The position numbers were made by a program, and so were the translations under genes. Shown in pieces: positions 11,201 through 44,089 of a DNA stretch of 64,000 nt. Where the stretch lies: contig OZ316895.1 of the NCBI GenBank assembly GCA_973895155.1, positions 18,671,880 to 18,735,879 of the forward strand, read 5' to 3'. The notes below the pieces were generated by a model that was not told the origin of the DNA, did no database searches, and saw only the letters and a list, made by a program, of their open reading frames with translations. How positions within the stretch are numbered: the stretch's first letter is position 1; every line of letters starts with the position of its first letter. This stretch comes from Marsupella aquatica (lineage: Eukaryota; Plantae; Marchantiophyta).

Positions 11201-12045
11201 GTCCAACTCCAATTGGGGCAACCAAGTTGCCAGGAATAGTACTGGCCGAAGGACAAGCCGAGACACTCGCACCGGTGCCGGAGGTAAGTGGCAAGGGGAA
11301 GGGGCCAGCTGCCGAACCAAAGAAGAAGAAGAAGCAAAAACCTTTTGGGTCAGGGAGTAATACGACTCCTCAAGCCGTCGTGACCAAGGAGGTAAACCCA
11401 ACACCAACCTCAGGCAGTGTCACGGCAGAGGATCCAACTGCCCTAGAAGGCGGGGATGGCAAAGCCGAGGCCAGGATACTCGGTGATGAAGCCAGGGTAC
11501 CGGATCCACCACTAGAGCATGCCGGGGAGGCCATGGCCGATGTTGAGGCCGAAGCCGAGGGTGGACCTAGTCAGGCCGATGGAGAGTTGACTTGGTCCGG
11601 AGCAGGTAATCTGTCAGAGGACGGACCTACGGTAGTGGCTGCGGAGGAAGTGTTGGGGGTGTCCATTGAGGACCAGACACCGCTGCCATGACGGTGGTGG
11701 AGGGCCGCTCCTTTTAAGGAGGACGGACATGGAGGGAGGAGGCGTGAGTGGGTAGGGCGGGCTCAGATCTCCAAGTTTAGAATTAGGATCAGGACCAAGG
11801 GGCGGCCCTGACACTTAGCTTAGTGGGATTGCGGATCCACTGGTAAGAGCAACACTTGTGCTCCTGCCTCGCTATACATAGGTAGATTATAGTTAGGTAG
11901 ATTAGGCTTACGCTGCAAGGAATTAGGCGGATCCACTACCAGGATAAGTACCTAGGCAGCGGGGAGTTTAGGGCCTTCTTCCTTAGCAAGTTTTTAGTGC
12001 ACCAGCAGGGCTGGGATCAAGTAGTTAAAGAAGCTCTCGGTTAGT
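8209..12045 (+). repeat. Family B LTR copy 1 (partial; target of the family C element), with ORF-B remnant 8209-11691 on +
   Basis: Reverse-complement homology to about 16275-20103; begins immediately after the CA of LTR-C; multiple stops and frameshifts. Confidence 0.9.
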
Positions 12046-13680: not shown

Positions 13681-15722
13681 ATGCCCTAAATAGGGAGTGG
13701 ATGAAGTGTGGGTTGCCGAGATGTGAAAGAAGTCCTCACCCTATCACATTGTTCACACCGGGCAATAACGTCTCAAACCTGGCCATGCATGCCTCTCCAA
13801 TGATAATGAGGGACCAAGAGGCTGTAAGTCCTCTTAACGCCAAAATGACCAAGCTCAGAATGTACCTTATGGATAAGGCCAACCCTCTCATGAATGGGTG
13901 GAACCACCACTTCCCTGTCTGGCAAGCAACGCACGAGATGATCTCCCTTCCACAAGTAATGCTTGGACCTTTGCTGAATTTGGTCTCTCTGGATTGCAGT
14001 AACATGTATGGGGTACTCCCCATGTTGCAAAAATCTCAGAGTGTCATTGTCCTCCCATATGTCCATCACAGGTTGGTCAACAACATAGCATGGCAGCAAA
14101 GCAAGATAGGTAGATGCATAAAATGTAGGCAGGATAGAAACCTGGTCAAAATCCTGTCGTGCATCTGAGGAATCATTAGAGGCAATCAAAGCGCTGCGGG
14201 ACATAATGTCAGCATTTTGATGTGTCACACCAGGCCTATGAATTACCTCAAAATCATACTCCTAGAGTATGAGCGCCCAACGAGCAAGCTTGCCAGTAAG
14301 CTTGTCGTTGGTCATCAACCACTTCAAGGGCTGGTGGTCGGTGTAGAGAACAAACCTGGTCCCATAGAGGTAGGGCCTGTAATGTATGACAGCCCACACA
14401 ACAACAAGGCATTCACCCTCATAAGAAGAATAATGACTCTCTGCCTGATTGTTGCTCCTGGATGCCTATGGCAATGACGTACTCTTTACCTTCCTCATCA
14501 TGTTGGCCCAGAATGGCACCAATCCCAAAGGGCACTCCAATCTGTGTGGAGCACAAAGACCTTGTTGAAATTAGGTCTTCTCAGCACCGGGTATTCTGAC
14601 AGCTTGAACTCCTTCAAAGTGGCAAATGTTGCCTTAGCATCTGTACTCCATGTCCAAGTCACATTCTTTTTCAACAAAGAGTACAATGGGTGTGCAATGG
14701 TACTGAAATCTTTAATGTAGATCCGATAGTAATTGCACAACCCAATAAAGCTCCTAAGAGTGTGAACATCAATAGGAGTGGGCATTTCCAAGATGGATAC
14801 CACCTTGGCCCAGTGAGCCATGGTTCCATTTGGAAGAATGCGATGCCCAAGATATACTACTGATCTGACAACAAATTCACACTTCTTGGGGTGTATCTTT
14901 AGGTTCACCTTCTTAAGCCTCATGAATAGCTCCTCAAGGTCAAGTAGATGCTGGTCAAATCCTTTGCAGTGGACCAACACATCATCAATGTAGCATTTCA
15001 GAAACTCAGCACCTTGAAGAACCTGGTCCATGACTCTTTGAAAGAATATGGGCGCATTCTTCAAGCCAAATGGCATCACCAACCACTCCCATAGTTGGTT
15101 ACTACCATGGAAAGCTGTTTTCTTGCGGTCCTTTGCAAGCAGCAAAATCTGGTTAAAGTCTTGCCTTAGATCCACAAGAGTGAAGATGTCTGAGTCTCCA
15201 ATGCTGTCAAATAGCTCCTCTGGCCGTGGCATGGGGTACCTGTCCTGGGGTATGACCAGGTTCAGTGGCCTGTAGTCCCCACACATGCACTTCTCTATCC
15301 ACAATCCACTGGAATCATTCTTTGCTGGCATCACTGTAGCTACTGCAAAATCTGATGTAGATGGTTGAATAAGACCAGCTTCATAGAGCTCTTGGCACCT
15401 CTCATCCACCAGTTGCCACTCATGCTTACTCAAACGGTGTCTCCACCTGAGATAGGTGTTTCATCAGCCAACTCAATGGAGAACTGCATAGTCTTGCACT
15501 TACCCAAGTCCTTCATAGAGAAAGCAAACACATTCTCATGCTCGAGGAGCAAATTCAACAGCTGTTCCTTCTGTCTTTTACTCAGGTGGTTGCCCATGAT
15601 GAACGTGTAGTTGGAAACACTAGGAATAGGACCTGATGTACTCGTGCTTGAAGAGCCAGAAGTGCCAGCTTCTCCACTGTCCAAGCTCCTAGCATGTTGT
15701 TGATAAGGTGATGAGGCCTCTC
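13681..15722 (-). pseudogene. Element A pol: RT, RNase H and integrase N-terminal zinc-binding domain
   Basis: CGDYRPLN, MPFGLKNAP, YIDDVLV, LHTDWSA, HSELGHFG..YHWRGM; frameshifts near 15440, 14520 and 13780. Confidence 0.92.
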
Positions 15723-18700
15723 TGTGGTGCGTCCCATGGCTCCCTAAACCCAAGAAACCCCTCTGCACAAGCCGATTCCCGCAGGTTTAGCTCTTGGCGA
15801 GGCGGATTTTGCGGCTTAGCGGCATGGGACGCTGCTAACTTCCTTCTACTATTATTACTATTAACATTTTACTCACAGATACTGGACAGATCCTTCATCG
15901 GGTCATGAGATACGTAGCCAACCTATTCTAGGCCTTCCCTTGTCCTCCTCTCTTGGCTTTCCTTTAGGTATGTTTGGATTCCACCGCCGGAATGATCCCC
16001 AACTGGCTTGGGTAAGCCGCTAAGACCTCTCTCAGCTTGACACATCCAACTCTTACTACCTCGCTTACTCCCTTCTTGGTTGATGTGGGCAATCTTTAAA
16101 CAGGTTAATGCGACACACAAATAGCAAAATGACTCCTTCTGACTGAGTTATACCATGCACTTGCCATACAAACAGTACTTCTCATATACAAGATCTACAA
16201 ACTAAGCCGTGAGGCCAACTCTATTCATCTCTTAGGTATGAGGAAACATGACTATACACAAGGGTCACAGTATAACTAACTGAGAGCTTCTTTAACTACT
16301 TGATCCCAGCCCTGCTGGTGCACTAAAAACTTGCTAAGGAAGAAGGCCCTTAACTCCTCGCTGCCCAGGTACTTATCCTGGCAGTGGACCCGCCTAATTC
16401 CTTGCAGCATAATCCTAATCTACCTAACTATAATCTACCTATGTACAGCGAGGCAGGAGCACAAGTGTTGCTCTTACCAGTGGATCCGCAATCCCACTAA
16501 GCTAAGTGTCAGGGCCGCCCCTTGGTCCTGATCCTAATACTAAACTTGGAGATCTGAGCGCGCCCTGCCCACTCACGCCTCCTTCCTCCATGTCCGCCCT
16601 CCTTAAAAGGAGCGGCCCTCCACCACCGTCATGGCAACGGTGTCTGGTCCTCAATGGACGCCCCCAATGCTTCCTCCGCAGCCACTATTGTAGGTCCGTT
16701 CTTTGACAAATTACCTGCTCTGGATCGAGTCAACTCTCCATCGGCCTGACTGGGTCCACCCTTGGCTTCGGCCTCAGCATCGGCCACGGCCTCAGATACG
16801 GTTACGGCCTCCCTGGCATGCTCTAGTGGTGGATCCGGTACCCTGGCTTCATCACCGAGTATCCTGGCCTCGACTTTGCCATCCCCGCCTTCTAGGGCAA
16901 TTGGATCCTCTGTCGTGACCCTGCCTGAGGTTGGTGTTGGGTTTACCTCCTTGGTCACGACGGCTTGAGGAGTCATATTACTCCCTGACCCAGAAGGTTT
17001 CCGCTTCTTCTTCTTCCTTGGTTCGGCAGCTGGCCCCTTCCCCTTGCCACTTACCTCCGACACCGGTGTGAGTGTCTTGGCTTATCCTTTGGCCAGTACT
17101 ACTCCTGGCAACTTGGTTGCCCCAATTGGAGTTGGACCTGAGGAAGCTAAGCACTTAAATACTGCGGCCTGTTTCTTCAGCCGCTCCGTTTGGTTGTCGG
17201 CTTGCCGCTATATGTTCTCCATCTTCCGCGTGCTTTCCTCCAACTCCTTCTGCAATTCATCCAGGTCCTTGCGCGCCTTGTCCCGCTCCTTCTGGGCTTC
17301 CTCCAATTCCTTCTTTAAGGTAGCCCTCTCCTCCTGAGTTGCTCTCAGCTCCTTGTCGAGCTCCGTAACGACCTCAGACTCCATTTTATTCATCTTGGCA
17401 TAAGTCTGATCAAGCTAGTCGTCTTTCTCACGCAGGTCGGCCTTGAAGCTGGCCGTCAGGGATGCAAGCTCCTGCCGCAGCATGATAATCGCCTGATAGG
17501 ATTTCCCTAACTCGGCCTCCTTCTGCTCAAGGGCTCCGCGGATATCCTTGAGTTCTCCCTTCAGCACCCTTTCCCCTCTATGAGTTTCCGCCATGGCCCG
17601 ATTGTTGGCTGCGATGTGGGCCTCCTCTGCGTCTCTCAGCTCTCGCTTCCACTTCTCCTTCTCCTTGATCAAATCGGCCAACTCTCCTTGGGTCCGAGTC
17701 AGTTTATCCTTGATAATCTGATTATCACACTGCGCGGTATCCAATTGCCCCTGCATGATGTTGAGCTCATGCCGCTTAATCTGCAGCTCATCTTGGGCTT
17801 TCTTGGCCGCCTTCAGGTCTTCTACCTCGGCTTCCCTGGCCCTAAGCTGACGGATGACCTCGTCCTTCTTGCTTCTCTCCAAAGCCACCGCTTCTTCTAA
17901 TCGGCGCTTCTCCAACATTTCCCTCTGGAAAAAGGGTCCTTGCTCCAACTCCTCCCCAAAGATGTTGAGCGCAAGTTCCCCACACATCTCCCCGTACTCC
18001 ATGGCTCGTTTTTTAGCATAGGCGGAGTGAGTAGAAGTCATCGGCATTATCCACCGCAGCCTTTTTTCCCAAGCCGCCTTGCGGATTTTTTCTGTCGTGG
18101 CTGCAGGGCTGTTTTGTTTTTCTGCAAGCCGCCTGATGTCCTCTGGCCATTCTCCTCCTGGTAAATCTTTCTCCCTAGCCATGGCTGCCTCTTCTTCCTC
18201 CCTGAGTCGTTCCTGAAACTCCTGTGCCATCTGTTTTATGACGTCAAAGCACGGGGGAGCGACATCTGGTGGGGGAGACTCGGGGTTGCTCTGTTGGGTT
18301 GGGTCCCCTCGAACTACTCTTGGAAGAGTGGGGATGAACCTGCCACAGGTCCTTATGCCAAAGTCATCATTGTCGTAGCCTTCTACCGCCTCCTCCTCGG
18401 CTTGGAGTACCGGCTCCCCCCGCTACTGTCCTGGTCTTGCCGTGAACACGGCCTCACAAATCACGGGTCCTGGTTCCTCTGGCTTCCACGTTGATCTCAT
18501 CTTCTCCCTGTCGCGACCAAGAGCTTTGGGCTGCTTTTCCTCGGCTTCAGGACTTGAAGCTCCTACATACATTCAGACTCCCAGCTCGTGTTTTGGCCTC
18601 CTTCTCTCCTTGACCCCGGTAAAGGGGTTTTCCCTGGTAAGTTGGCTATTAAGGCTGACTTTGGGAGCAGTATTTAGTACCGGTCCCGTTGCCGTTGCCA

Positions 18701-20418
18701 TTCTCCTTTCCTTCTCCAGCAATTTCAGCAGATTCTGCATGCCTGGTTGCTGCATCGGCAAGTCCTCCTTCCTTGGCCTAAACACTTGCTCGATTGTAGG
18801 ACTGTCGGGCTGGGTCGGTTTCTCTATTGTCGGCCTTGGTTCCGGAACCTCCTCTGGTGCTCTTGCCTGCAGGGGCAGTACCGGGGCGAATATCTGACTT
18901 CGGGCATACCGGCACAACAACGGCATATGATAACCAAGCCGGGACACGCTTCCCATGCCGATCACCAACTGTTCCTCCTTCAAGATCTTCTTTAATTGGG
19001 TGAGGAGGTACCCATTGTAGTCTCAGCTTGGGTCTGGCTTCTCCGCCAGATAGATCTGTGCCTTGCCAATCTCTGCCCTCGGCAAGTTGCAATGCATGGT
19101 CACCCGCAAGAAATCGATCATTTCTCCTATGTGCGGGTTTGTGCAGGTGTTTCGAAAGAAGCCATTCTTTGTTGATGGCCCTGGAAATGACCGGAACTCC
19201 TTGTCTGGCAAGGTCTTCCTTGTATCTACTTTGGTCTTATTGCCCATCGGCAAGCCAAACACTTCGGCAATCACCCGGGGAGTGAGATAGAAATCCTTCC
19301 CATATACCCTTGTGGAATTGGTCTCAGGCTCCCATGATCCCACAAATTCTAGTAAGTCTGAATCCGGCACCTTCGACTTCAGCCATGGTAACTTTACGAA
19401 GGCTTCCAAGCCAGATCCGGCCATGAAGCCCTGGTATTTCCAAGTCTGCATAGCCGTAAAGCATGCATCCTCTTCCCGTGCAAAGTGTAATTGCACTTCC
19501 TTGGGGAGGGTTGCCGCCCAGCCTTTCCAAGTGTCATCTCTTGTTGGAACAGCATTGATGGGGTCAGCCTCCTCCTCTTTGGCTTCCGCCTGCCTCCTGC
19601 TTCCCTGCTCTACTGGTTTCCTGGGTGCCGCCGACCTCATTCTTTTTGCAAGGGTGGCTTCTTTGTTATTGTTCCCTTTCCTCTTCATAGCGGCTGTCGT
19701 GGATGTTTCTCCTAGCACGGTTGCCTTCGTCCACCCCTCCGTGCTACCCTTCAACTCCCAGTGTATGTCATTGCAGCGGTTGATGGCCTCTCGGATGCCG
19801 ACTATTCTGTTCTCACAAAACAAAAGATCCTCAAGTTCGTCGGCAGTAGGCGTCCACAAGAATTCAGCCGTAATGAGTTCTCCTCCTAAGAAGGCAAACT
19901 TCTGTAGCTCCCACAGCCAAGCGAGCTCCTGCAGTTCTCGAGCCGCTCTCTCCGATTCTTTGTCCTCGTAGGTCCCAATGTACTCAGTTGCCCGTTCGAA
20001 CAGGCATCCCCAAAAATGAGCAGCTTGATTGACGTTGCTCATACCCTTCTTGAGTTGATTGTCGGTATCTTCTTCCACCCCAAGTGCTTGCCTGAGTAGC
20101 GGACAGTAGTTGGCCTCCCGTAGTCGTCCGCTTGGCTCGTGCTTGCAAATGAGCCGCCATTCCTTGCGATCGGTCCTTACCCCCCCTGGCTGGTCTTCCT
20201 TCCCGTTGGTTACCCATAGCCGCCGGTACTTAGCGCGCCCTAACCCTAATCATGTTCCCTCCCCCGACGTCCTTACTTTCGGCCTTGGCTTGGGTTCCAT
20301 AGTCACCCTTAATTGTTTATATTTTCCCTGTTTTTGTTACTATACTAAGGTATTTCCTAGGGTACACTCTTGATTTTACTATTTAAACTGGCCTAATGAT
20401 TCCTGGCTAGGCATCACA
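15723..20418. repeat. Family B solo LTR, complete, 4696 bp
   Basis: TGTG(G/A)TGC...GCATCACA terminal inverted repeat; perfect TSD CTCTC (15718-15722 and 20419-20423); no gag/pol inside. Confidence 0.9.
16629..20300 (-). pseudogene. LTR-internal ORF-B (about 1220 codons), homologous to ORF-C, with a long C-terminal coiled coil
   Basis: Chain of minus-strand ORFs from the ATG at 20300 (MEPKPRP) to EDQTPLP-stop. Motif LPW..DLLEFVGSW..TRVYGKDFYLT..VFGLPMG. Lesions mostly differ among the four copies. Confidence 0.82.
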
Positions 20419-20423
20419 CTCTC

Positions 20424-21281
20424 CAAGGCCTGTTGTACCTGTTGATCTGGGTTGGTCCACACCATGAAACTCAGAAATATTGTCAGCCACGTTACAAGGG
20501 ACCTCTTCCCCCTCAACACTTGGACTGAAGCGGTGAGTGTTGAATAGAGGTTACAAGTGCACCTGGTCTGGATGCCATGTAGCAGCACCATGGAGTGGTA
20601 GAGCTGGAACTCCTGATGCTGGATGAATGTACATCTGAAAAAGGATGCAAGTGACCAGAAGCCAAGTGAGAGCATTGAGATCCATTACCCTGCCAAGTAA
20701 AGCATTCCTGGCCAGCCTGGTGATCTTGGTGTGACCTGTAGTACCAGGTTGGAAGCCCATAGCCCGTTCTCTCTCCTCAGGACTAGGTTCATCCCATATA
20801 CCGGTAGAATGTCGATAAACCAGGCCAGGACCATCACCCTGAAAAGCATGTGCACCTGGAAAGGACACAAATGTAGGCCAAGCAGCACGGGGCTCTCCAA
20901 TGGTATTGGCTGGATACCAAGGGGCTGGCTCTTGCTGTGTAACTGGTTGGCAAGAACTGTCAGGATCCAAAATCTGGTCCATTGTGAGGTTAGTGTCCCT
21001 GGATGTGTGATGAAGAGCTAACTCCAACAAGATAGGTGGTGCAAGGTTAGCCCAAAAGTTACGAAGACGATGTGCATAAGAACCACAGTGCACTGCATCA
21101 ATGAGAAGGGGTGGTCCCAAGTAGTGCTGGACCACACTGAAATCCTCTTTGACTTGTGGATGCTGGTCAAACTGAGAGGGAGTATTCTCAATGATATAAC
21201 CAATAGCAGGGTAAAGGGATTGAGCCCAGGTGAGAACTTGAACCAATGCTGTGAAAAGGCCAGAACAAGAATCATGCAGTC
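20424..21281 (-). pseudogene. Element A DNMT domain, C-terminal half (motifs VI, VIII, IX, X) plus linker to RT
   Basis: YIIENT (VI), GSYAHRLRNFWANL (VIII), EERERAMGF (IX), RLARNALLGRVM (X); closely resembles DNMT3 SAAHRARYFWGNL and RLARQRLLGRSW. Confidence 0.9.
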
Positions 21282-24200
21282 TGTCAAACACTTGTCAAGG
21301 AGCTTAAGCGGCTTTTCTCCCCAAAAGACTACCTAATACCTGCTCCATATCATACCAGGGTCACAAAGGATTGACAAAACTTCTGAAATGTGCCTACAAT
21401 GACTAATCACTCCATACATAAGTAGTTTCAACTCTCCACTTCTAGAGAGGTAGTCCCCTTGACTACTTTTGTACTCACACCCTTCCCCTCTCCTCTACTC
21501 CAAGGATCAGCAAAGGGGATCTCCGCTCCAAGCTGTCACCTTAGAGAAGAGTCTCATACAAACACCCAAGAACCAAAGTACTTTCCTCTTCAAGCTTAAG
21601 TCTCCTCAAGACCCTCAAAGTAGTGTTACCCCTCAACCTTGCCCCCCTGGCCTTGGTTTGGGTCCACACATCCCCTTTGAGCTCTAGAGAAGGCTCCTCT
21701 ATCTAAGGACTCTTCCTCTTGTTCTTACTTCTTGTTAACACCACACACCAAGCAAAATACTTTCCACCCTCAAGCTATAATCCTCTCTAAGTCTCAAAGT
21801 AGTGCTATACCTTAACCTTGCCTCCTTGGCCTTGGTTTTGTACTAGCACATCCCCTTCAAGCTTAGACCAAGATTACATCATAGCATGGACTCTTCTCTT
21901 GCTATCATATACTTCAAATGCACTCACACTTAATGGTCACAATGAAGATTGGCAAGTCTCCTTTTATTGCATCACCTTTACAACAAAAGTTCACTACACA
22001 TTCTCCACACTAAGCATGGACCACCTCTCCCTTCTCAAGCTTAGCCCTACCTTGACAAGGTAGAGATTCCACTTAAGAGATGAGACTCCCGGTCCCTAAC
22101 AAAGGAAAACTTTCTCCTTATATACTATTCTCCTTCCACACCACACCAAGCTTGACCTAGGGTCCAACTACTCCTCCCCCAAGTCCTCCTAACACACAAA
22201 GTCCAACTCTATAATTTGTAGCTCACTCTACAACCTATTGCTTGACTCCTTCCAAGCCCTGGAATATGCCACACATGAGTTGCATGCTTTGACCTCCAAA
22301 CCTGCTCTTACTTATGGTCCTCCTCACCAGCTTCCCAACCCACTTGAAAGCTCGCAAAAAGAGTGAGTGCGTCTCAAGTTGTGTCATGTCAAAGTTGGCT
22401 CCTTATTTACTAGTTCTTACTTACTACCCCGACCTATCAACTTACTTTCCTTACCCTAACGTCCTTGCACCTTTACCCTGAGGTACTCTCTTCTCCATGT
22501 ATCCTAACTTGGGTGACACGGGTGCAAGAAGTGTCGGCCTAAAAACCTGGTCTTACTTCCCCCATGCCAACTCCCGTTTGCATGCTATGGGGACCCCCTC
22601 GTGGCCTCCGCTAAAAATATATTTGAGTGATTATTTTTGGGGTTTCCACCTTCACCAAGGGGTGCCTTACCTTCCCCTAACTCAGCACAAAAAAAATTGG
22701 GCCCCAACGGATACCCCTAGCCAAAGTTATGTCCATTCTCCCAATGCCTGTTTTTGGTGTAAAGCGGGTGTAAGCGGCGACCCAATTATACTTGAACCTT
22801 ACACGCCCCTTATGGGGATTCCACGTGTCATGAGGGGAGAGTACTCTCATTATACTCACGTTTCTTATGAAGAAGATTGATAAGGACACCAATTTTTGTA
22901 GCATTTTCCTCTCTCTTGAATTCAATCTGAAACAACAGCATTCTCTATTGCATCGAATGACAGCAGGTCAATTGATAGCTCAGCCAGGTCTACAACACCC
23001 TTCTCAGTCCACCTCCATAGCCATCCAGCCTTGCAAGTGATTCAAAATCGCAGCAGAATTTTGCAGCAGCCATAGCCCACCAATTCGTAGCTTGCAGCAC
23101 AACAGCACAGCAGCAGATTCGAAGCATAGCAGCTGATTCGAAGCACAGCAGCAGTAGCCATAGCTTGATTCCTTCTCAACAACTAGCTCTATTCCAATCA
23201 CTTAGCCAAGCAGGTCTCTCTTCTCAATTTCGTAGCTGCCCACCTCTGTAATTTCGCAGCTAGCAGCAGCATCCATCAATTCAACAGCATCAAGGCAGCA
23301 GCCAGCCAATTCTCGTGAGCATCTCATGCCTGATTAATAGCAGCACATCTAATCTATTGTGCCGCTGCCATAGCAGCAAGCAACCTTCCTAATTCAAAGC
23401 CAGCCTCCCTATTCCAATTAGCAGCCATAGCTCACAATTCAATTTCACAGTAGCAGTTGGGTCAAGTCCTTCTCAGCAGCAACTAGCTCAATTCAATCCT
23501 GCACCTGCCTCTCCAGATCAAGAGTGACCTATTTTGATGAGCACCAGCACTTCAATTAGCCCACCTCGTGCATTCCTGCCCATGTCGTGCTTGCCTGACC
23601 TCGTGCTAGTCTGGTCGCAGCCGCGTCGACGCGTTTTGACACTTAGAAAAATTTCGTTTTCCTCTCAGGAGAAACAGTTATACTGGCCCCTCTTGAAGGC
23701 CATGCCATAATTCACTCAAATATCCAAACGTACTTCTGAGCACATTTCTGGAATCCTTGGACATAGGACTCACTCCTAAATTTATCAAACTCTCTAAACA
23801 CTCCATAACGACTTTTCTAAAAATACATAAGTTTGACCATATCTATTAAAGCGCATTACTATTCCCAATCTTTGAGGTGTTCCCAAAAAGTAACAAAAGG
23901 CGACAAATTATTTCTGAGACAATCCAGGGATTAATATGGTCTATACTAAACTCAATTCTAACCTCGAACCCACAAAATTTACCCCTTGGCTATTTTCTCT
24001 GGGCCCGCTAGTTGGTTATTTTAATTTCTGTCAAAATACTCACAACTCCTAGGTTGAGACCCCACTTGACTTCATACTTTTTCAGGGTTCCCTAGGGACC
24101 TCCCAGCACCCATGGGAGAAATATCAGCCAAAAATAAGATGTCAGGTGTCGGGTCATTTTCCGGTCCCGACTTAGTCGCCTATCCTAACTAAGGGTGGAA

Positions 24201-24419
24201 TATTTGTTGCCTACCAAAATCACATTACTTATCCCTTTACATCTTCTTAGAACAACACATTTTCTCCCTTCCATGATTTCCTACTAGCCTTTCCTAGTGA
24301 CTTAGGGTTGCAAACCCTAAGTACTTTGCTAACACTACAACAACTTTCTTACTATTCCTTGTACAAACAACAAAAAAATTGACAAGTTCCTTACATACCC
24401 TATATTGAGCCGGTCCACA
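21282..24419. repeat. Family D solo LTR (3138 bp) inserted in the DNMT domain
   Basis: TGT...ACA ends; TSD CAGTC/CAATC (4 of 5 match); excision restores GHGVGL-HDSCSGLF in frame; no long ORF. Confidence 0.82.
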
Positions 24420-26756
24420 CAATCCAACACCGTGACCAGCACCTGAAAACCCTTGGCATTCCCAACCAACTATGATCAAATCAAGGGAGCCAAGAAGGGT
24501 TAAGTGCCGGTGCTGGACAAGCTGGATATCGGGATGAAAGAAAGAAAATACAGACTTCCATGCACTATGTGGAATCTGTTGGGGAAATCGCTCTGAAAAT
24601 TCCAGCAGACAGGATTCAGCCACTTGCCTTGCACCGGGATCAATATCCACATAGATATATTGCTTCACCACCATGCCAGACTATAGGAGAGCTTCCACGC
24701 CTGTAGAAATACCACCAAAAAGCTCAAGCAATGTAAGGCCATCTAGAGGAGGAGTCCATATAACTGGTGCGCTCAAGATTGGGGCTATTGGTTGTCCATT
24801 GTGGTGCCCAAGGTCCTCAAATTTGCGCAATGCAGCCACCTCATCATTATCCTCCTCAATCCAATCCTGCAATGGGTGGTTGACATAGGTAGTTGTGTGC
24901 ACTGCTTTCAACACACAATGGTGAGCCATAGGTGGATGGGCACCATGCAAATCAAGTGAAATGTAGCCCAAGTGTGAGCCATCCGTATGCCAATCAACTC
25001 TATAGTATGCATGCTCATGCCAGTTGTCAATGGTAAAACCTGGTGGGAACAAAGCCTCCTGGCCAATGAGCACATCATACGTAGTGGCATTGGTAACCAA
25101 ACATCTGACTGGGAAATGCAGTTCTTGATCTGTACCTCCATTAAAAGTGAAAGTGAGTAAAGTAGAACTCTCACCCATCACATCCTCCACAGTGCCACTA
25201 GCAGCCCGAATGTGCCACTTGGATTGCTGTAAAATATCAGTCAGGAGTCCCATTTGCTTGGCAAACTGAATGCCCAAGATCACTGGTTGAGCGCTTGTGT
25301 CTAGCATGACCACCTGAGGAGTGTGACCCTCCAACTTGACCGCTGAATTCCTGTTGTCAACAATGACAATGGTGGTGGAAACTGAAGTCCTATCACTAGG
25401 CACCACTCTCGGCAAATGATGAGGTACCTTGTGAAGGGAGTTAGTGTCCACGATCTTCCCACTCAATAGCATAGCCAAGAAAGATGGAGCATCATGACCA
25501 GAATCAAGTGTAGCTTTGGTCACACAATCTGCAACAATACTGCCATCTCTATCATTGGAAATTGGTACTGGGATAGCCAAACCAGTGGAAGCATGTAATG
25601 GAGAAGAAGAAGGTCCAGTATGTACATGAGATTGGACCTCCAAAACCGGTGTCACAGGGGCTGATGAAGAATGCAGTGAACCCTCTAGCGCTTTGATGAC
25701 AGCTCTAGCATCCAACTGTAAATCATGGCAACTAAAAAGTGGAGTTGTAAGAATCTTTTGTGCCATATTGGAGGTGAAATGCTCAAGCAGCTCAGGAGAA
25801 ACAACTCTCTGTGAAATGTCAGCAACACCTGGTGGTGGAATGGATATAGCTACAGCTCCCTCCCCCCTCACCAACAAGGTGCGCTCTTCAACAAGCGTGA
25901 CTAGCTGAAAAGATTGGGGCATGACAGCCCGAGCTCCCCTCGCTCTAGTCATAGAACCAACAGCAAGACCATCAGCCTGTACAATGCGGCATGTGGGAGC
26001 AGTACGGGAGGCAGCACTGGCCTACTGGTAAGCAAAATAGGATGGGCCGAATGAATCTGAAAAGTCTGTTGTAAGGCCAGGCTGTGTAGCAGAGGACAGC
26101 ACACACTCATCCATATGAGCATCAAATGGCAAGCCATAGAAAGAGCGGGGTAAAGGTGCTGAACTGTCAGTGGTGTCTGGGCCAGGGATGGGTTGCACGT
26201 GACCAGCCGGTTGAGAAGGACCAGCAGAGGCAGGTGACTTGCCTTTGATGTTGGCAAGTTGGGCACGTTAGAACTCAACCTCACGAGTCAGAGACTGGAG
26301 TTGAGTTGCCTGTGCGTTGTGAGCCTCCTTCTGAGCTGGTTGCTTCTATTGCTGCTTGGACGATTTGCTGGCACCGGGTGCTTTGCCACTGGAAGGAGGA
26401 GCAACTGAGGCAATAGGAGCCCTCCTAGCTGGTGGGGGAGTGGAAGCAGGAGCAAGATGAGGGACCTGCTGTCGTAGCTGCTTCCTCTCTAGGAATTTGG
26501 AAAAACAAATTGCCTCCAAGTGACCCACTTTCTTGCAAAAATCACAAGACAGGTCCTCAACAACAATATCACATTCATTAGCCTTGTGATTAGGGTTACC
26601 ACAGTAGTTGCAAGATGGTAGCATGAAAGCAGCATGTATTGGCTTGGTCTTGGAAGCATATTGTGGCACATAGGAAGGAGTGGCCAGTGTAGGGGCGGGA
26701 GCCTGGTACTTGGATTGCGGTGGATGTGCAATACTGGCCTCATAATGTGCATGGGC
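24420..26756 (-). pseudogene. Element A gag C-terminus (two zinc knuckles), aspartic protease and DNMT N-terminal half (motifs I-IV)
   Basis: CNYCGNPNHKANEC and CDFCKKVGHLEAIC; VMLDTSAQ; LELFGGISTG (I), YIYVDID (II), DLIIVGWECQGFSGAG (IV). One in-frame TAG at 24681-24683. Confidence 0.9.
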
Positions 26757-29700
26757 TGTGACGCCGCCAGTACAGCGAGTAATGAGTAATTCGGTCTAAA
26801 CCGTGCCTAGCACGCGCGTTAGGAGCATCTTAGGCCGCTATGATTAGCATAACGACAATATTTAGGTAGCCATTATGAGTAGGAAATCATTAGTCAATAA
26901 GGGGAATTCATGTTCGGGCTGGCGGCGCGTCGCCATTCGCACACCTGGGTTACGAGCATGGAGGGGCCCCTCCCTCGGGTCCGTATAGCAAACTTCGGGA
27001 GGCGTCCACTGACACGCGGTGACTCAGACCGGCGGAGTGGCCGGTACACTACAAGCGTGAACGGTTCAGCCTATAGGCAACGAGGAGATGTTGGGGGATC
27101 GACAAGCCCTCAAGGTATAAAAAGGGAGCCGACCCTTTGGAGTGCACCAGTCCATCAGTCCACGCGCCAACTTCGACCCCAGCTCTCTCGTTCGCTCTAA
27201 GTCGCCACTACTATCTCCTCTGAATGTCGCACACGATGCTCTCCAGTTCGGCCATTCAATTCTGGACGCAGTTCCTATCTACCGGAAGACACTTGGCCAA
27301 CTCATTGAAACACGCCAACCCGCGCCGATATGAAATCGAATGCGAGTATGAGAGAGCCATCCGCCTAGCAGGATGACACCACTACATCCTTAACTTTGAC
27401 TACCCATCTCAGAGCGAGCTTTACCGACCAGCAGAGGTATGTGGGTACTTCTTTAATGGAGACAAATATATCGGTTTTTGGGAAGCATTGCTTCGGCTTC
27501 CGGACGAGGTCTTCAATATCCCGGGTACGATTGACTTGCAACGACATCACTTCGACCACATCCCTGCTCAGGTTCGGGCTATCATCAACAGTGAGTCCAG
27601 CACTACCCGTTTGACAAGGTCATCTACACTTGCTTCAGAGAACTTCTACCAGCACCTACAGAGCTTCATGGGAACTAGACCCGCAACCACCGGCGCCAAC
27701 CCAGTCGACCCCATACCCGTATCCGCACCAACGCAGACTCAGGCTCAGGCTCAACTTTAGTCTCAGTCTCAGCCTAGCCAACCCCCACCGCCGATCGCCC
27801 CGCCAGCAGTACAAGTACGCTCTGTCATCAACACTGTGGACCTTAGCGACGACGACGAGGCTACCCCACCCTTGCTCAGGCGGCCCAGAGGAGCAAACAC
27901 TCAGGGGGCCGACACTATATAGTCCCCTCCCCATGCTCGGACCCAAGGAGCGGCTCCAGCAGACAACACGATGACCGTGGCCGCCCCGGGACCAATACTA
28001 ACGGCGGTAGCACTACCTATGCCCGATCGAGAGGATGGGGAGGTGTCACCTTCCCCGAGCCAGTCACGGGGGAAGAAGAGGAAGGAACCCGCCACTGCAT
28101 CCGGGTTACCATTGGCCACGGTAGCCGTGGCCAAGGTGACAATGCACCGCATGGGGGAAAACGTGCATAAGAACATCCTCCATCCCAAGCATGCAGTGTA
28201 CCTGAAGACTCAGGGATTCGAGCACCTCGCCTCTCTCCCCTGGAACACTTGAAGGTACTACGGGGAGGACATGACAGAATTCGTCAAGAATTATGATGAC
28301 GCACGTCAACATACTCGGCTGCGGGGAAGGAATATGTCCCTCACGAAAGAACGGCTCAAGATGATCTTTGGATTACCCGAAGGTGACCATCGAGTCAAAT
28401 CACGGGCTCCCGGGGGCAAGGGAGCCAAGTACCAATCCTCGAGTTTTCCCTCAGAGGGAGCAGTGGACAACGGGTTCGTGATGAGGACCTGCCTCATCCC
28501 CGAGATAGCTGAGCGACTAGAGTTCCAAAGGTACGCCCTCCACATGATGGAACCCCGGGGGGAGATCTCCGCCGCCCAGGTTATCCAGGTCGAGAACTAT
28601 CGACCTAGGAAGTGGGCGTCGTACTTTGCTAAGAAATTCCATGAAGAGATGGAGCGGCGAAGGAAGATGTTGTACATTGGCGGGAAGGCGTATTTTGCTA
28701 GCCACATCGAGATCATTCTTGAGTGGTACACTCGATTTGATCGACAAACCCTTCCCCGTGTCAACGTTACAAAGCTTGTCCTTGCTAGGTGGGTTTTTCC
28801 GGCCTTGGAGAGACGGCCCCAACCCGAGGCCCAAAGTCCAGCGGACACGCAAACTTCACCCACCCCACCTCCACAAGTAGCTGTAGTCGTAACTGAGGAG
28901 GTACCGGATGGGTCGGTTATCGCAACCATAGATGCGATCCAACAGGCCGGGCTAAGTACAGAAGTCGGTACAGCGGAGGTCTTACTCAAGCCCGGGTCTC
29001 CCAAAGACCCACTGGTGGCTATTCCGGAGAACCAGACATTGCTGCAAGAGGACACTCCAGCCCCTTCCAACATTACGTCCCCAGGGCTGGATGTCACTGC
29101 CCCGGCCCCCGCGCGTGTTCACGTCTGCCCGTGCCCAACTCCGGACAGGCACAACCTGGACCACCCGGAACTCTTCATACCGGGTGGTCCAGGTCTATCC
29201 TCTGACCTGGCCCAGTCAGAGTTCCGGGTGGTCCAGGTCCAGAGGATAGAGCGGTACCGGGTGGAGTCCGTATACTTAAAGAACGAAGTTGTGGCTCAAG
29301 AGGCTGAGCTTTTGCAACTACGACCCAAAGTTGCAGCCGCTGATGATTTGTTAGCAAAGGCGCACGCCCTTACCGCCCTAGCCGAGCAGGCCAAAGCTGG
29401 GAACGAGGCCGAGATTGCACGACTCCGGAACCAGATTGACAGTTTGAAGAATCAAACTATCATCTGGCAGAAGGATCTGGAGGAGGCCGAAGAACGGGCC
29501 CAACGGGACACTGCGGAGATAGCCACGCTACAGGCCGAAGTGGCACGGCTCCAAACCGAAGCCGAGAAGCAGGACCAGCTGGCGGGCAAGCTGACGAGCG
29601 ACGCCCAGCAGCTGGAGGAGGCAACGGAGGAGACAGATGCGGCGAAGCGAGAGAACGAATCTCTGCTGGACCAGGTCCAGCTCCTCAAGGCGGACAACGA

Positions 29701-30664
29701 TAGACTTTGTAAGCAGCGGGATGGCCGCTCCCACTCGGGCGGCTCTGGCAAGGGTGCCAGGCATTAGCGGCGGAGTAGGAATAGAATAGGGTTAGGAGTA
29801 GCTAAGTCAGGCTATTGGGACAGGCACCTGCCTTAGTTACAGCAGCACTGCCATGCTGTCCAACCTGCGTAGATTAGGATCTTCTAATAAGACACAGCCA
29901 TTTTTTGGCCTAACAGTCAGATTAGTTAGGACCTAAGTCAGCGAATCTTCGAGCGGGAGGACACTCCGTTCCTCGGCCCTTAGTATTTAGCGCACCCCTC
30001 GGTAGAGGCAGGGGGGTTTTTAGTCTCAGAGTTGGACATCCGTGGTATGCGTGGGGAGTCCCGACCTCTGGGAGTGAAAGAGTACCAAGGGGAGGGGGTA
30101 GGACTAAGCTCGTTGGGCGAGTGCGGAGCCAGGTTCCGTTGTAGTATACTCTCTCGGCCTTGAACCTGTTCATTCCGGAGCTGTCGGGTCAACCAAGTGT
30201 ACGCACATGTCCCCTATGTAGTAAAATCCTTTCCCATTATTTTCTTCGTGTAAATCAAGATTGTATGCTTGTACGCGTGTATGTGTGTGTGAATCTCGTG
30301 TATAGGTGGCAACGCCGGGCCGAACGCACTACCCGAGTCGTGCACGGGGTGCAGCTTGCGGGTATGTGGTTGCGAGCATGGTTTAAGAACCTGTATCATT
30401 GAATCCGGATCGAAGGCGGACAATACGAAGGCTTAGAAGTTCTTAAGCCGGGGTCGATCCTGTTATCGACTAAGGTACGTTCCAGCGGTGGAACATAAAC
30501 CATACCTAGGAGATGTCCGTATCTAACAGTAGGCGCACTTAGCGCTAGTTTACGTGAATTAGGTGCATTACGGGCTTCCCTCCCTGCCCGAACCCTCATA
30601 TTTACGAAGGAGGTGCCCGTTTAAAGCTGAAGCCCGAGTTAAGGCCAAGGCTGATGACGTGACA
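26757..30664 (+). repeat. Family C solo LTR, 3908 bp, containing ORF-C remnant 27224-29767
   Basis: TGTGACG...CGTGACA; perfect TSD TGGGC (26752-26756 and 30665-30669); excision restores gag AEKLELAH-AHYEAS in frame. Confidence 0.95.
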
Positions 30665-31430
30665 TGGGCCAACTCAAGTTTCTCAGCAGTGTCATAGACG
30701 TTGAGCAATGTGTAGCTATCTCCAAACTCTGAGAATACTTGCTGCAACACTTGCAAATGGAGAGCTGGTGTGCCCTCCAATGTATGAAGGTAGCAATGAG
30801 CAGCCTCCAGGTCAGTGATGCTCTGGGTGTCCTCCTTCAGCTTGAGAAGCCGGCGATACATCATCTTCAATGTTTCATCGCACTGCCTCACAAAGGTGGC
30901 CAACTGCATGATTTTGTTAGCACTCTTGATTGGGAATTCCAATTCAAGAACCTGGAAAACTTAGCCACTGGATCAGCAAAGGCAGGGGAATCAATGGTGG
31001 GAGAAATGCCTGATGTAGCCTGTGCCAAGACAGTGGGAGTAACTGGCGCAGTGGTAGGAACTAGAGTAGGAGGGGAAATGACAGGAGCAGCAACACGGGC
31101 TACAATGGCATTCTGTAAGGCCAATTGTGAGGCTGCCACAATTGCATTGGCATAGGCAAGGTTAGGCAATTGGGTGACAGCAAGCAGCCGTTGAGAATGC
31201 TGCTCATACACATCCAAAACCTCATGGTGCACATACCTGGCTAGTTGCTTAAATGCAAATGCAATTGTGAAATTGCTGTTGTACTTCAACTCCAATTCAT
31301 AAATGACAGTGTAGAAAGTGGATTTGAATTCACGCAAAGAAACAATGCTTGGACGCCCACTGAAGCGCTCAATGCGGCCAGATGAGTGGCTGACATCCAT
31401 GCTGTATGTCGGTGAAGCTGGAACAACCAC
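30665..31430 (-). pseudogene. Element A gag N-terminal (capsid-like) region
   Basis: IERFSGRPSIVSLREFK..., QLATFVRQCDETLKMMYRRL; lies just downstream of the PBS; one frameshift near 30960. Confidence 0.75.
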
Positions 31431-31600
31431 TGATGCAGAAAGAGTAAAGGGTAAAGAAGCGATAGCAGACTTTGGGGTAGTGGTGAAGCGACCACCAAAT
31501 GTAGCAGAAGGGTTGCGTGGTGTGGGTGCTGCTGCTGTTTGCTGACGCCGTCAAAATTGTCGAGATTCCAATGAAATTGGCACCAACGGTCGTGGATCAC

Positions 31601-31616
31601 TCCGTAAGTGGTACCA
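31601..31616 (-). promoter_or_regulatory. Primer-binding site of element A (TGGTACCACTTACGGA)
   Basis: Begins TGG 3 nt after the LTR-terminal CA; the cognate tRNA was not identified. Confidence 0.7.
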
Positions 31617-31619
31617 AGG

Positions 31620-33077
31620 TGTTGGTGGCGATGAGCTGCTACCTCCTGGCTCGTTTGCTGACATGTTGTGTGATAGTACCCGATGTACCCAAAATGTGTA
31701 AAGACTGAGAAAACCCATCACCGTCAAAAAACCATCGGGGACAAAGACTCTTAAAACCTCAAATTGTGTCCCCATCGCGCTTGCCTATGTGTATACATAG
31801 GCAATGTTGGATTGCCGTCCCATTTGTATACCCCGGGCCTGCAGCCCTATGTAGATGACCATCGGCGGCAGCAAAGAAATCCACAAAGAAATGGCCAAAA
31901 AAATGTGAAAGGGGGCGCCCCTTAAGTGTATACGTCGGCCCCGGCGTGGACCCAAAAACTGACGGAAGGCGCACGTCGATGGAAAAGAAAAATCAGGTGG
32001 GGACCGGCAACCAAGCGAGTATGCATACACACTCGGGGCACCGTGCGCTATGCTGCAGACAAATAAAAGCGAAAGCAAGGCGAGGCAAAAAAGAAAAGGA
32101 CAAGGCAAGGAAAAAGAAATGGCCCCTAATGGGCTCGAGCCCTGCATAGGGCTTTGCGCCCCCCTCTCCTTATGCTCCCAAAGAGGTGAGGGCTATGAGC
32201 TCCCCCTCTCCTCTTCAACGCGCTGTGGGCCTCGTGCCTAGCTTGAATGTACTCCCCTTCTGTTTAATACAGCATAGGGCCTCGTGCCCTCTCCTTGCGC
32301 CCCTGCTTTGACTCCCCTCCCCCTTGCTTTAATGCTGCCTAGGGCCTCGAGCCCTCTATTGGCACTTGCTTCCCCCTCCTCTCCTTGGCTTGTGCTCAGC
32401 TCCCCTCCCCCTGCTTTTAATGCTTCATAGGGCCTCGTGCCCTGTCCCTCCTTGTGCAAAAATCTACTCCTAAGAGAAGGGAGTCTGTACTCCCCCCTCT
32501 CTTAATGCTGGCAATGGAAGGTCAAGGCTAAAACGAGCCAAGGAGGAGGCGAAAGAAAAATGGGACCCCCCCTATGTGAGTAAGGAGGAGAAAAGGGAGG
32601 GTGTGCGGCCCTATGCGCAGCTTTGGGGCATTGATGAGCCCCGCATGTGTATACTCAGGCTGCAGGTAGGGCAACAACAGGACTGGGAGGCAGCTTGCGA
32701 CGGCAGCTGCCGAGTAAAGAAAAGGGGTCGCAGCCAGGAAACAGCTCGCAACGGGGGCCGCCTGAACAAAATGGAAAAGGGGAGAAATTGGCCGGGAAAC
32801 ACCGAAAAATGGCCTCGCGTATGTCGATCAACAGCAAGTCACCTCCACTTTGCGGCAGTCAATTGGCAGGTGGAAGTAGGTCGTGCTGCGGCCGGCAATC
32901 GATGGAGGCAACACTCAATGGAAGGGATCGCGGACGCACTTGGGAAGGTTGGGTTCCAATAGAAGCGTTATGTGTATACTTACACATAACGCGACATTAA
33001 ACCATAATTTCAACCCGTCCCTCCATGGTTGCTCAAAGAAATTGCACCGACTTCGACGGGAATTGTCTGGACCGACA
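31620..33077 (-). repeat. 5' LTR of element A, about 1458 bp
   Basis: On the minus strand TGTCGG...CCAACA (5 of 6 inverted match), followed by the PBS; LINE sequence starts immediately beyond 33077. There is no second LTR in the window to confirm it. Confidence 0.72.
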
Positions 33078-33180
33078 TAAGCAGCTGAGACAAGAATGTC
33101 TCCTACCTTCTTCCCCTTGTCAGCAACTCAGCAGTTCTTCTTGAATAAAAGGCGTAAGAGTGCACTACACTAGCAGGAGG

Positions 33181-35728
33181 ATGGTGGATTTATTTAGGGT
33201 GGCCTCGTGGAATGTTTGCGGTCTGTGCGAACCCAACCGCAAGCATGTGGTGAAGAACTCGGTTAAATCCTTGAAGTCACCCTTGAGTATTCTGGCATTA
33301 CAGGAAGTAAAAACTGATCAGTTCCGCTTAGATATGGCGTTGAGAGCAATCCTTCTTGACTACCAACACTTCTCTTCTGCACCGGAGGAGGGCAGAGGGG
33401 GAACAGCTTTGTTGGTCCACCCTGAGATTAAGGTGGTGAGATCAGGCATGCTTGATCTGGGACGTGCTGTGTGGGTGGTAGTGGACACATCAGCTGGGAA
33501 GATTGGAATTGCGTGTATTTATGCCCCTAACTCTTCTAGGTTACAAGCCCTGCTTTGGAACGATCTGAAGACCTTGCTCCCACAATTTGACTGGATTGTG
33601 TGTGGAGACTTCAACATGACAGAGCGCAGGTTGGATTCCACAGGGAACTCGCCTTTGATTCGAGGTAGGGAGGCGGAATTTTGGAGATTTCTCAAAATGC
33701 AATTTGATATGGTGGATGCCTGGGATGTCAAAGGTGCTGCAACCGGCCCCCGTTTCATGTGGAGGCGCTTCCGAAATGGTGAACTGGTGCAGTCAAGGCT
33801 GGATTGTTTTTATATAAGCGAGAAAGGATGGTGGATGGGAGAATTGGTGGGGCTCCTCCATGAGGGAGGCTCCTCTCTATCAGATCATGATCCAGTGCTG
33901 TTGGAGGTGAGGCTAGCAATGTCTCAGGTGCCAGGACTAAGAGGGAACACTAAGATTTTTAGGGCTAATCCAGCCTTACTGAAGAGAGAGGAGGATATGC
34001 AAGAGCTAGAAGAGGCTTGGAGGAAGGGAAGGGAGAACTTCGAGGACCCGCTCCTGCAATTTGCCAAGGGTAGTGCTCAACTGCAAAGCACTTACAGGAA
34101 GCTACAAGCCAAGCCGCGCTCAGCAGAGGTAGAGATGAGTTTCCTTCAAGCACAAATGCGTGCTCTAAAACTGTCAATTTTAGAAGCACATTTGGCCTCT
34201 GAAATCAGGGAGTACATGGAGGCGGAAGACTCATTGCATATGACAGAGATTGAGGAAGCGCACAGGGGATGGAGACGCTAGAGTTAAGTGGTTGGGGGAA
34301 GGGGAAGAATCCACTAAATTCTTTTTTGCTATGGTGAAAGCCAAGAGATCTAGAGAAGCTATGACTTCTCTTATTAGGGATGATGGCAGTGTGATTGTGG
34401 ATCCTCATTGAATCTTGGGAGAAGTAGAGACTTTCTATAAGGGTATGTACTCAGCTTCGGATCTAACAGGAGGAGATAGGCGTACAAAGAGGAGCCAAAG
34501 CGCGCCTTTTAAGGAATACCAGATATGCTCTATCAGCTGCGGAGACCTTAAAGATGGAGGAGCTTCCTTCCTTCGAGGAGGTGAAAGATGTATTGTGGCT
34601 TCTGCCCAAAGACAAATCCCCGAGACCAGATGGATTGACTGCGGAGGTGTACAAGGCTTGTTGGGGATTCATTGGTAGAGATCTAGTAGACATGATTCAG
34701 GAATTCTGGCTATCAGGTGGACTCGATGGTAGAATCTGTGAGGGAATAATCAAATTCATACCAAAGAAACCGGATAAACGCTACTTAAAAGACTGGAGAC
34801 CACTCACAATGTTAAATATAGTGTACAAAATAAATGCCAAGATCCTTGCCTTGCGTTTGAAACCCCTCCTCCACAAGATAATCAGCCCTCAACAGACAGG
34901 ATTCATCCCTGGGTGGCACATCTTGGAAAATATCTCACTAGCGATGCTTACATTTGATTGGGTGCAACAGATGAAAACCAAAGCATTATTCCTAAAGCTC
35001 AATTTTGAAAAGGCATTTGACAGGGTCTGTCATGAATATATTTGGGAATGCATGCACCTTCTTGGGATCAGTGGACGCTTTATAATGTTGGTAAAAGCAC
35101 TGTTGGCTCAAGCTTCCTCGAGGGCTCTGGTAAATGGATTCCTTTCGGACCAGGTGCACCTGAAGCGTGGAGTGAGACAAGGCTGCCCATTATCACCACT
35201 TTTATTCGTGATCTCCACACAGCCGCTCATGGATTTCCTGAATGCGGAGATTATAGATAGGAGGCTTAGTGGACTGCAAATCACGGAGGACCTCATGGTC
35301 TGCTACAAACTTTTTGCTGATGACGTCGGAATGTTCATCCCGACTACAGAGGAGGATTTTGAGGATACAAGACAGGCACTACAATGTTACGAGAAGGCCA
35401 GCGGGGCCAAGCTGAATCTAGAGAAGTCAGTAGTGATTCCACTGGCCATGGAAGAGATCCCACGCTGGCTCACTAACACTGGTTGCATTGTCAGCCAAAA
35501 GGGGGAGATACAAAAGTACTTGGGAGCACCCTTAGGAGTTGGGCTGCACACAGAGCAACTGCACAAGTTCTGCTTGGATAAGATAAGCTCTCGATTATCG
35601 GCCTGGGTAAACAAGTTGTTGTCTTTCACAGGAAGAACCCTCCTAGTTAAGCATATTCTGCAAGCAATTCCAATCTACCATGTGATGTACTGTAAAGCTT
35701 TGGCAGGATTAGCAAAAAAACTGATTGC
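33181..35728 (+). pseudogene. LINE ORF2 endonuclease and reverse transcriptase; continues at 37950-38609 and from 39800
   Basis: ATG at 33181 shortly after the putative ORF1 stop; motifs as above; frameshifts at about 34270-34550. Confidence 0.92.
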
Positions 35729-44060: not shown

Positions 44061-44089
44061 CTCCACGGGAGTGACAAGGTCTGATTGGG

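Follow-up and report, generated by a model that had tools for sequence, protein, structure and literature searches.

Cytosine methylation is the main means by which plants silence transposons, and a transposon with a de novo methyltransferase of its own is therefore a paradox, one that has been open since 2018, when Gypsy elements offered a single known example, present in few copies in an alga. The question returns with the 64,000-nucleotide stretch of contig OZ316895.1 analyzed here (the window), whose minus strand carries a decayed Gypsy retrotransposon with gag, protease, a C5-methyltransferase, reverse transcriptase (RT), RNase H, and an integrase zinc finger. What would such an enzyme do for the element? 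We read the locus as a dead copy of a multicopy Gypsy family with a DNMT3-like DNA methyltransferase (DNMT) domain between protease and RT, live copies of which would methylate their own cDNA before insertion, and we give this reading, including the model of the ends set out below, a probability of roughly 60%. The anatomy of the window element, taken alone, is close to certain.

The methyltransferase is found on the minus strand in two pieces, as the earlier note had claimed. Motifs I (ELFGG), II, III, IV (WECQ), V, VI (ENT), VII, VIII (HRLR), IX, and X (LLGR) follow one another in linear order through 24743-24420 and 21276-20620, split by a sequence resembling a solo long terminal repeat (LTR). 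The N-half (24420-24743, motifs I-IV with the catalytic Cys), delimited by motif reading and a profile of relatives, has one stop at 24681-24683; the C-half (20620-21276, motifs V-X), recognized by the same profile, is 77% identical to protein P0039 from Calypogeia. The profile, 332 positions long, was built from 73 relatives with no rows from the window. Against it the N-half scored 118.7 bits (positions 2-113) and the C-half 254.4 bits (positions 115-329), compared with 3.1 bits for the best of 400 shuffles, and the two halves occupy adjacent parts of the profile with all catalytic residues retained. The Pfam check with PF00145 proposed earlier was applied to the separate halves and to intact relatives: the N-half reached 13.1 bits (E of 0.064; cut-off 22) and the C-half gave no match, whereas intact relatives exceeded the cut-off (40.5 bits for locus L002 and 27.1 bits for P0039).

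Several comparisons bear on the class of the enzyme. All 24 matches of the window C-half alone to solved structures were DNMT3A, DNMT3B, or DNMT3C, weak as they were (best E of 0.023), and the domain of a close relative matched DNMT3C at an E of 2e-4. The family profile scored 77.8 bits against DNMT3A and 48.9 bits against entry 4onj, which we take to be a plant DRM. Locus L002 has the sole stop-free domain among the 55 loci with a full-length domain. Its predicted structure (pLDDT of 92.4) had DNMT3A as the top Foldseek match (TM of 0.75), and VIA-align gave Z scores of 29.0 with DNMT3B (rmsd of 2.6, 272 aligned) and 28.1 with DNMT3A, above those of M.MpeI (25.6), HhaI (23.6), and DNMT1 (19.8), with DNMT2, DNMT5, and MET1 also below DNMT3. 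On these profiles and this predicted model, the DNMT3-like assignment made in the note holds. Key residues are kept among 73 diverse relatives: the Cys of motif IV in 71, the Glu of motif VI in 72, both Arg of motif VIII in 72, and the Gly of motif X in 71. DRM, in which motifs VI-X stand before I-V, was rejected on the linear motif order, and a stand-alone host plant DNMT3 was rejected because the domain lies between protease and RT and gave no DUF3444 match. Searches of viral contigs with the DNMT and with a Klebsormidium RT returned no relative. Phage DNMTs match the family domain weakly (best E of 3e-9, 24%), and the ESM Atlas gives the same score of 0.96 to one streptophyte cluster and to two clusters that are mostly viral, which is uninformative on origin.

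The rest of the element was placed on the same strand with Pfam and tblastn. A leader upstream of gag (31401-31665) is common to other copies; summed contig depth drops more than 10-fold past 31666, with loose ends at 31665, and a 5' terminal repeat was not identified in the window, other copies diverging beyond 31665. The 5' part of gag (30665-31400), with a frameshift near 30960, is 59-77% identical to P0005 and P0039 by tblastn. The rest of gag with its CCHC zinc knuckle, a spacer, the aspartic protease (about 25340-25050), and a linker follow at 24744-26756, found by tblastn and by Pfam zf-CCHC and gag-asp_proteas. A second linker (20419-20619) comes after the DNMT. The pre-RT region, the RT (15448-14531; Pfam RVT_1, 98.5 bits), and RNase H lie at 14150-15717, with frameshifts near 15450, 14530, and 14467, and this piece is 79-82% identical to P0002, P0039, and P0086 by tblastn. 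The tether and the integrase zinc finger (13681-14149; Pfam Integrase_H2C2) are cut at 13680 by another repeat of the family of insert B described below. Uninterrupted relatives map collinearly by tblastn, with gag at 31400-30661, gag-protease-DNMT at 26756-24420, DNMT and linker at 21279-20461, and pre-RT, RT, RNase H, and the integrase zinc finger at 15684-13680. This collinearity, with the Pfam matches and the intact relatives, bears out the claim that the DNMT sits between protease and RT. The order protease, RT, RNase H, integrase of Ty3/Gypsy elements is present up to the integrase zinc finger, and the complete Gypsy order is found in related loci and in P0204 and P0207. The integrase core, the PHD finger, and the 3' repeats of the element were not found within the 64-kb window. 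No tRNA genes were found.

The gaps between these pieces are three inserts with TG..CA ends, each with a 5-bp target duplication, and they are younger than the element. Insert A (21282-24419, 3.1 kb, solo-LTR-like) is flanked by CAGTC/CAATC, which match at four of five positions; insert B (15723-20418, 4.7 kb) carries open reading frames (ORFs) of 408 and 335 aa and duplicates CTCTC; insert C (26757-30664, 3.9 kb) carries a 504-aa ORF at 28253-29767 on the plus strand and duplicates TGGGC. Inserts A and C are missing from other copies in public sequencing runs: contigs of run X1 jump from 21276 to 24420, without insert A, and the far side of junction C is carried by loose ends in runs X2 and X4. 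By piecewise arithmetic the reading frame is preserved across the insert junctions, and, as the note had stated, removal of the inserts with one target duplication each leaves a single frame from protease to pre-RT, up to the frameshift at the start of RT. That frameshift, near 15450, is decay by comparison with the relatives, because P0002, P0034, and P0039 read through the same place. The note had also counted only two stops before it, both of the C-to-T type. Both stops exist and the count holds from the protease on, but that at 20551-20553 is an inserted codon instead of a C-to-T change, its three letters being absent from other copies (depth in X2 of 15240.9 of 15426.9), and the damage goes beyond that list. 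The copy is dead, with eight stops in the frames followed (26348, 26270, 26024, 24683, 20553, 14264, 13775, and 13688) and the four frameshifts given above.

The families of the inserts recur in the window. Family B is present as four copies or pieces (15723-20418, 8216-12045, 12046-13680, and 50463-54190), two of which meet head to head at 12045/12046; its unit has no internal repeat, its 408- and 335-aa ORFs have no Pfam match, and it resembles a very long solo LTR with coding content. Family C has a second copy at 4201-8209, and its 504-aa ORF gives a weak ESM Atlas lead to plant mobile domain proteins (score of 0.82; PF10536 on 39% of members).

The window element belongs to a multicopy family in which the DNMT travels with RT. 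Among the best 80 of 353 metagenome stretches chosen by DNMT, RT lies downstream of the DNMT in 66; 13 end before RT could start, and one has RT deleted. Since these loci were selected by DNMT, a search by RT is the fairer test of association, and the nearest of its 120 listed matches are either DNMT carriers or sequences that begin just ahead of RT. The DNMT shares an ORF with RT in P0002, P0034, P0039, P0133, P0204, and P0207, of which P0204 is a complete single ORF of 2358 aa. A search for longer proteins gave 27 relatives, the named ones from Calypogeia fissa and Sphagnum magellanicum. The domain is found within such a polyprotein in four streptophyte genera, the named carriers being Calypogeia (P0039), Sphagnum, Marchantia (Mp2g26090 and MARPO_0091s0058), and Closterium, so that the lineage does persist in embryophytes as the note had supposed. 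Runs X1 and X2 contain thousands of similar contigs over the element region. The window C-half is nearest to that of Calypogeia (77%) and falls outside the Sphagnum-containing branch (99/96), and in the RT tree the window RT could belong with either of the two. From these affinities, the host is taken to be a bryophyte, probably a liverwort; the land-plant host expected earlier is in agreement with this, the nearest named relatives being Calypogeia fissa and Sphagnum.

Most complete relatives have a PHD finger at the end of their polyprotein; none was detected in P0133 and P0207. A second domain order, RT-RNase H-DNMT-integrase-PHD, is common; its named members are from Scenedesmus sp. PABB004 and Haematococcus, the latter a degenerate copy. 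The alignment used for later searches also held integrase and PHD columns (1088 positions), which favors proteins with both DNMT and integrase, and the architecture counts are therefore not an unbiased frequency of the DNMT. P0008-P0018 and P0217 form a sister group in which gag-protease-DNMT has an ORF of its own, about 1330 aa long, that closes behind the DNMT; this group has the canonical PC in motif IV and groups with the Marchantia domain. The family DNMT P0212 is filed under a bacterial metagenome bin name and is probably plant or algal DNA in the bin.

Divergence between copies was compared by region. For the window against the 80 loci, pN and pS were 0.23 and 0.68 for the DNMT, 0.40 and 0.71 for the spacer, and 0.13 and 0.73 for RT, p-distances being used because the median dS for protease, RT, and spacer is unreliable through saturation. 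The dN and dS values were 0.22 and 1.81 between the window and L002 and 0.098 and 0.98 between L001 and L002, and among decayed loci the median dN/dS was 0.40 for the DNMT, 0.39 for RT, and 0.70 for the spacer. Judged by these distances, the pattern shows that the DNMT domain has been under purifying selection between lineages.

The history of the two enzymes was followed in trees. The careful RT tree contains 66 hand-picked rows (LG+G4), while a 123-row RT tree is a quick tree only. In the former, one clade supported at 93/97 against 19 other Gypsy RTs holds both domain orders, two Klebsormidium RTs, and a Coleochaete transcript, and the quick tree returns the same grouping (SH-aLRT of 100). 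Inside this clade the chlorophyte order forms a clade at 100/100, and two separate sublineages occur in bryophytes. For 73 proteins, the DNMT tree and the RT tree both split by domain order and are correlated (Mantel of 0.66; 0.87 and 0.45 within orders), and 14 of the 19 strong DNMT branches recur in the RT tree. At the level of these trees, long co-inheritance of the DNMT with RT is shown. The ORFs of the two Klebsormidium RTs reach 146-185 aa upstream of RT and lack a DNMT. A single capture of the DNMT appears compatible with the trees, which lack host DNMT3 rows.

The ends of the element were read in Sphagnum-type relatives (DNMT C-half 59-73% identical), outside the window's own family. 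These carry split repeats, A...B-A-B, in place of ordinary LTRs. The full layout, found in six loci, is A (about 290 nt), the coding region, a G-tract, B (about 180 nt), A, and B; among 30 loci with at least 800 nt after the PHD finger, 13 have B-A-B, 15 have B, one has B-A, and one has none. The B-only locus L050 and the B-A-B locus L015 share one site, and the B-only form can thus arise by recombination or assembly collapse. The termini are TG and CA, with an exact 4-bp duplication in 4 of the 6 full and 3 of the 7 B-only copies, and the end structure is TG-A...polypurine tract-B-A-B-CA with 4-bp duplications. In 12 of 29 copies (10 of 21 sites) the bases after the 5' A show complementarity, 11-16 nt long, to a site located about 32 nt from a TATA-like box. 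Complementarity of at least 11 nt was present in none of the 15 copies of the 3' A and in 5 of 2900 shuffled sequences. At the A|B junction the last base of A directly adjoins the base that follows the G-tract, as would be expected where B-A-internal-B-A is closed end to end into a circle. The B|A junction within the repeats reads GACA-nn-T(G/A)TCATG in 14 of 15 cases, and the last 45 nt of B, adjoining this palindrome, contain five CpG in an otherwise AT-rich repeat. Repeats A and B had no match in the 64-kb window. A DIRS or Ngaro element, with a tyrosine recombinase and no DDE integrase, was rejected because the relatives have an rve integrase, the H2C2 finger, and 4-bp duplications. A lone A-B unit away from the coding region (L029, 17752-18231) corresponds, for elements with such ends, to a solo LTR. 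Split repeats of this kind would probably hide such elements from ordinary LTR finders.

These ends may be explained by the following route. Transcription would start within A, at a distance of about 32 nt from the TATA-like box, a start placed by the box only, and the first 12-15 bases of the transcript would pair with the bases just after A, priming reverse transcription on the RNA itself as in Tf1. Ordinary reverse transcription from this site and from the G-tract before B would yield an LTR composed of B+A, and the resulting B-A-internal-B-A molecule would be circularized end to end into a two-LTR circle. The circle could then be cut open within its first LTR, at the CA-nn-TG palindrome where B meets A, and the enzyme would likely be the DDE integrase that the element encodes. 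Staggered cuts after each CA would yield processed integrase ends. Processing of ends by integrase is established chemistry, and foamy-virus integrase cleaves circle junctions. As for the methyltransferase, it would be made together with RT and integrase, packaged in the particle, and there methylate the new cDNA of the element before insertion. The methyl marks might perhaps let the new copy enter the chromosome already marked or protected, and the C-terminal PHD finger might read chromatin at the target. Self-methylation of cDNA has already been proposed for retro-DNMTs (PMC5890265).

The closest known system is KnitGypsy-Dnmt3 of Klebsormidium nitens (de Mendoza et al. 2018, PMC5890265), for which a figure legend gives the A-coding-B-A-B layout and which the article, in the parts considered, reads as acquired in the K. 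nitens lineage. The window element and its relatives share with it the Gypsy domain set; an intronless, DNMT3-related domain in the Pol ORF with unrearranged motifs and key residues kept; purifying selection (Ka/Ks < 0.2); and, in the Sphagnum-type relatives, the DIRS-like A-coding-B-A-B repeats. Two Klebsormidium RTs (P0106 and P0140), which may belong to the KnitGypsy-Dnmt3 family, fall in the same RT clade. Unlike that element, the present one has a land-plant host, and its relatives include Closterium, Coleochaete (RT only), and chlorophytes, a spread that speaks against an acquisition in the K. nitens lineage; the self-priming site, the 4-bp duplication, and the internal palindrome seen here were not found in the parts of PMC5890265 considered. 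SymbioDIRS-Dnmt3 of Symbiodinium, described in the same article, also has a DNMT3-type domain in Pol with RT and split direct repeats; de novo CG methylation in yeast was shown for it, and it has a DIRS RT and a tyrosine recombinase, whereas a Gypsy RT, a DDE integrase with H2C2, and target duplications are present here. PpDNMT3a/b of Physcomitrium (Yaari et al. 2019, PMC6453930) likewise have an unrearranged DNMT3-type domain in a non-flowering streptophyte, but according to the portion considered they are host genes with a C-terminal DUF3444, which Pfam did not find in the window pieces or the relatives scanned.

Other comparisons concern the ends and the chromatin reader. Tf1/Sushi and Tj1 (PMC4600332) and the plant Tcn1 chromoviruses (PMC6317226), as portrayed in excerpts of these articles, resemble the present Gypsy elements of non-seed plants in a primer site complementary to the 5' end of their own RNA; they differ in having ordinary LTRs and mostly chromodomains, where a PHD finger, the DNMT, and permuted repeats are found here. 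The REXdb passages considered do not mention PHD, Marchantia, or Sphagnum. The EpiLTRs of Cymbomonas and Euglena (bioRxiv 10.64898/2026.05.21.726589) are also LTR elements that encode both a chromatin reader and a cytosine DNMT, but their DNMT is, in the sections considered, sister to DNMT4, is accompanied by a DAM domain and a chromodomain, and is called distinct from the streptophyte Gypsy-DNMT3. The Chlamydomonas v6 preprint, again in part, gives Gypsy-7a a PHD finger and ordinary LTRs. The kind of element is thus already known from Klebsormidium, and what is new, in the literature searched, is its occurrence in land plants and chlorophytes: the open-access passages contain no report of the family from either, with the proviso that later papers say "streptophytes" and that their supplementary trees may include bryophyte rows, and the portions of the PMC5890265 supplements considered name neither Marchantia nor Sphagnum. 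Also new, in the Sphagnum-type relatives, are the 4-bp duplications, the Tf1-like self-priming site, and the palindromic CA-nn-TG inside the repeat, which together suggest integration from a two-LTR circle.

Methylation of cDNA in the particle is favored by the related dinoflagellate retro-DNMT3, which, in the passages of PMC5890265 considered, methylates CG in yeast. Several observations weigh against the reading as a whole. Motif IV has EC instead of PC in the window and in 42 of the 73 relatives (PC in 23), and two DNMT branches with strong support disagree with the RT tree. In yeast, no methylation was obtained with KnitGypsy-Dnmt3, a result called inconclusive by its authors in the parts of PMC5890265 considered. 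The RT-clade proteins P0413 and P0171 have long N-termini without the DNMT and the Haematococcus copy is degenerate, so that the DNMT is dispensable in some lineages. The ends come from outside the window's own family; in addition, the opposite permutation was not seen (B upstream of the 5' A in 0 of 25), and the circle model alone leaves unexplained the choice of one among two identical sites. As for CpG content, the window element is the most CpG-depleted in the window (codon-boundary observed/expected of 0-0.35 compared with 0.29-0.84), but it is older than its three inserts, and positions at which it has T or A are C or G in other copies, so that the loss is partly post-insertion; only 7 of the 31 listed changes are in CG context, and in 10 of 10 loci the flanks are poorer in CpG than the Sphagnum-type element between them. 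CpG depletion was therefore rejected as a trace of self-methylation, because it does not discriminate.

The DNMT might instead act at or after integration, in a pre-integration complex with the PHD-bearing integrase, and methylate the insertion site and the new copy. The PHD finger at the end of most complete polyproteins, the chlorophyte order with the DNMT directly before integrase, and the de novo action of the moss host DNMT3b in heterochromatin (PMC6453930, in the portion considered) fit this alternative, but the streptophyte order puts the DNMT beside RT, far from integrase, and some members (P0133 and P0207) have no detected PHD finger; we regard it as rather unlikely. Improbable in our view is that the DNMT serves the end structure, methylating or binding the CpG-rich end of B and shielding one CA-nn-TG site against cutting by the integrase that the element encodes, in the way that the methylase of a restriction-modification system guards its site, and so fixing A...B-A-B and blocking self-cutting. 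The five CpG next to the palindrome, the single permutation observed among two possible ones, and the co-occurrence of split repeats with the DNMT here and in KnitGypsy-Dnmt3 would agree with such a role, but these are purely correlative, the ends are known from the Sphagnum-type loci and the Klebsormidium figure legend, and the inverted permutation may be lost or never made for other reasons. A one-off capture, the outcome named in the note as fatal to its proposal, or an assembly chimera, with a DNMT that has no role in the element, is hardly credible, because the dead copy, the two halves below the PF00145 cut-off, and the stops in 54 of the 55 loci with a full-length domain are outweighed by the same order in 66 of 80 loci and in four named streptophyte genera, purifying selection, tree congruence, and the thousands of similar contigs in X1 and X2.

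The presence of the family in gene models of Marchantia and in Calypogeia, Sphagnum, Closterium, and Scenedesmus opens the paradox to work in plants that can be transformed and for which methylation mutants exist, and the relatives supply intact natural enzymes. It also suggests that the Klebsormidium element did not arise by local capture but represents one branch of an older lineage, and the logic of the ends is a testable model for an integrase element producing DIRS-like ends. A broader scenario, in which one green-plant-wide Gypsy lineage predates the chlorophyte-streptophyte split, kept DNMT3 and PHD, in chlorophytes relocated the DNMT, originally ahead of RT, to a place behind RNase H, and combined self-primed reverse transcription and a two-LTR circle with a DDE integrase opening at the LTR palindrome at a cut site chosen by its own methylation, is tentative and, taken whole, doubtful.

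Further mobile elements and ORFs lie elsewhere in the window. A second, unrelated Gypsy at 481-3975 (plus strand) has protease, RT, RNase H, and integrase, no DNMT match, and hardly any loss of CpG (observed/expected of about 1.0). A long interspersed nuclear element (LINE) with endonuclease and RT is found at 33145-35738 (plus strand); a second LINE-like tail at 39092-39715 (minus strand) and Copia-like gag, integrase, and RT ORFs at 59158-63848 (plus strand) were judged by eye. A 422-aa ORF at 43973-45241 (minus strand) has an end that looks methyltransferase-like by eye, and two shorter ORFs encode 150 aa (46343-46795, minus strand) and a Cys/His-rich 192 aa (49584-50162, plus strand).

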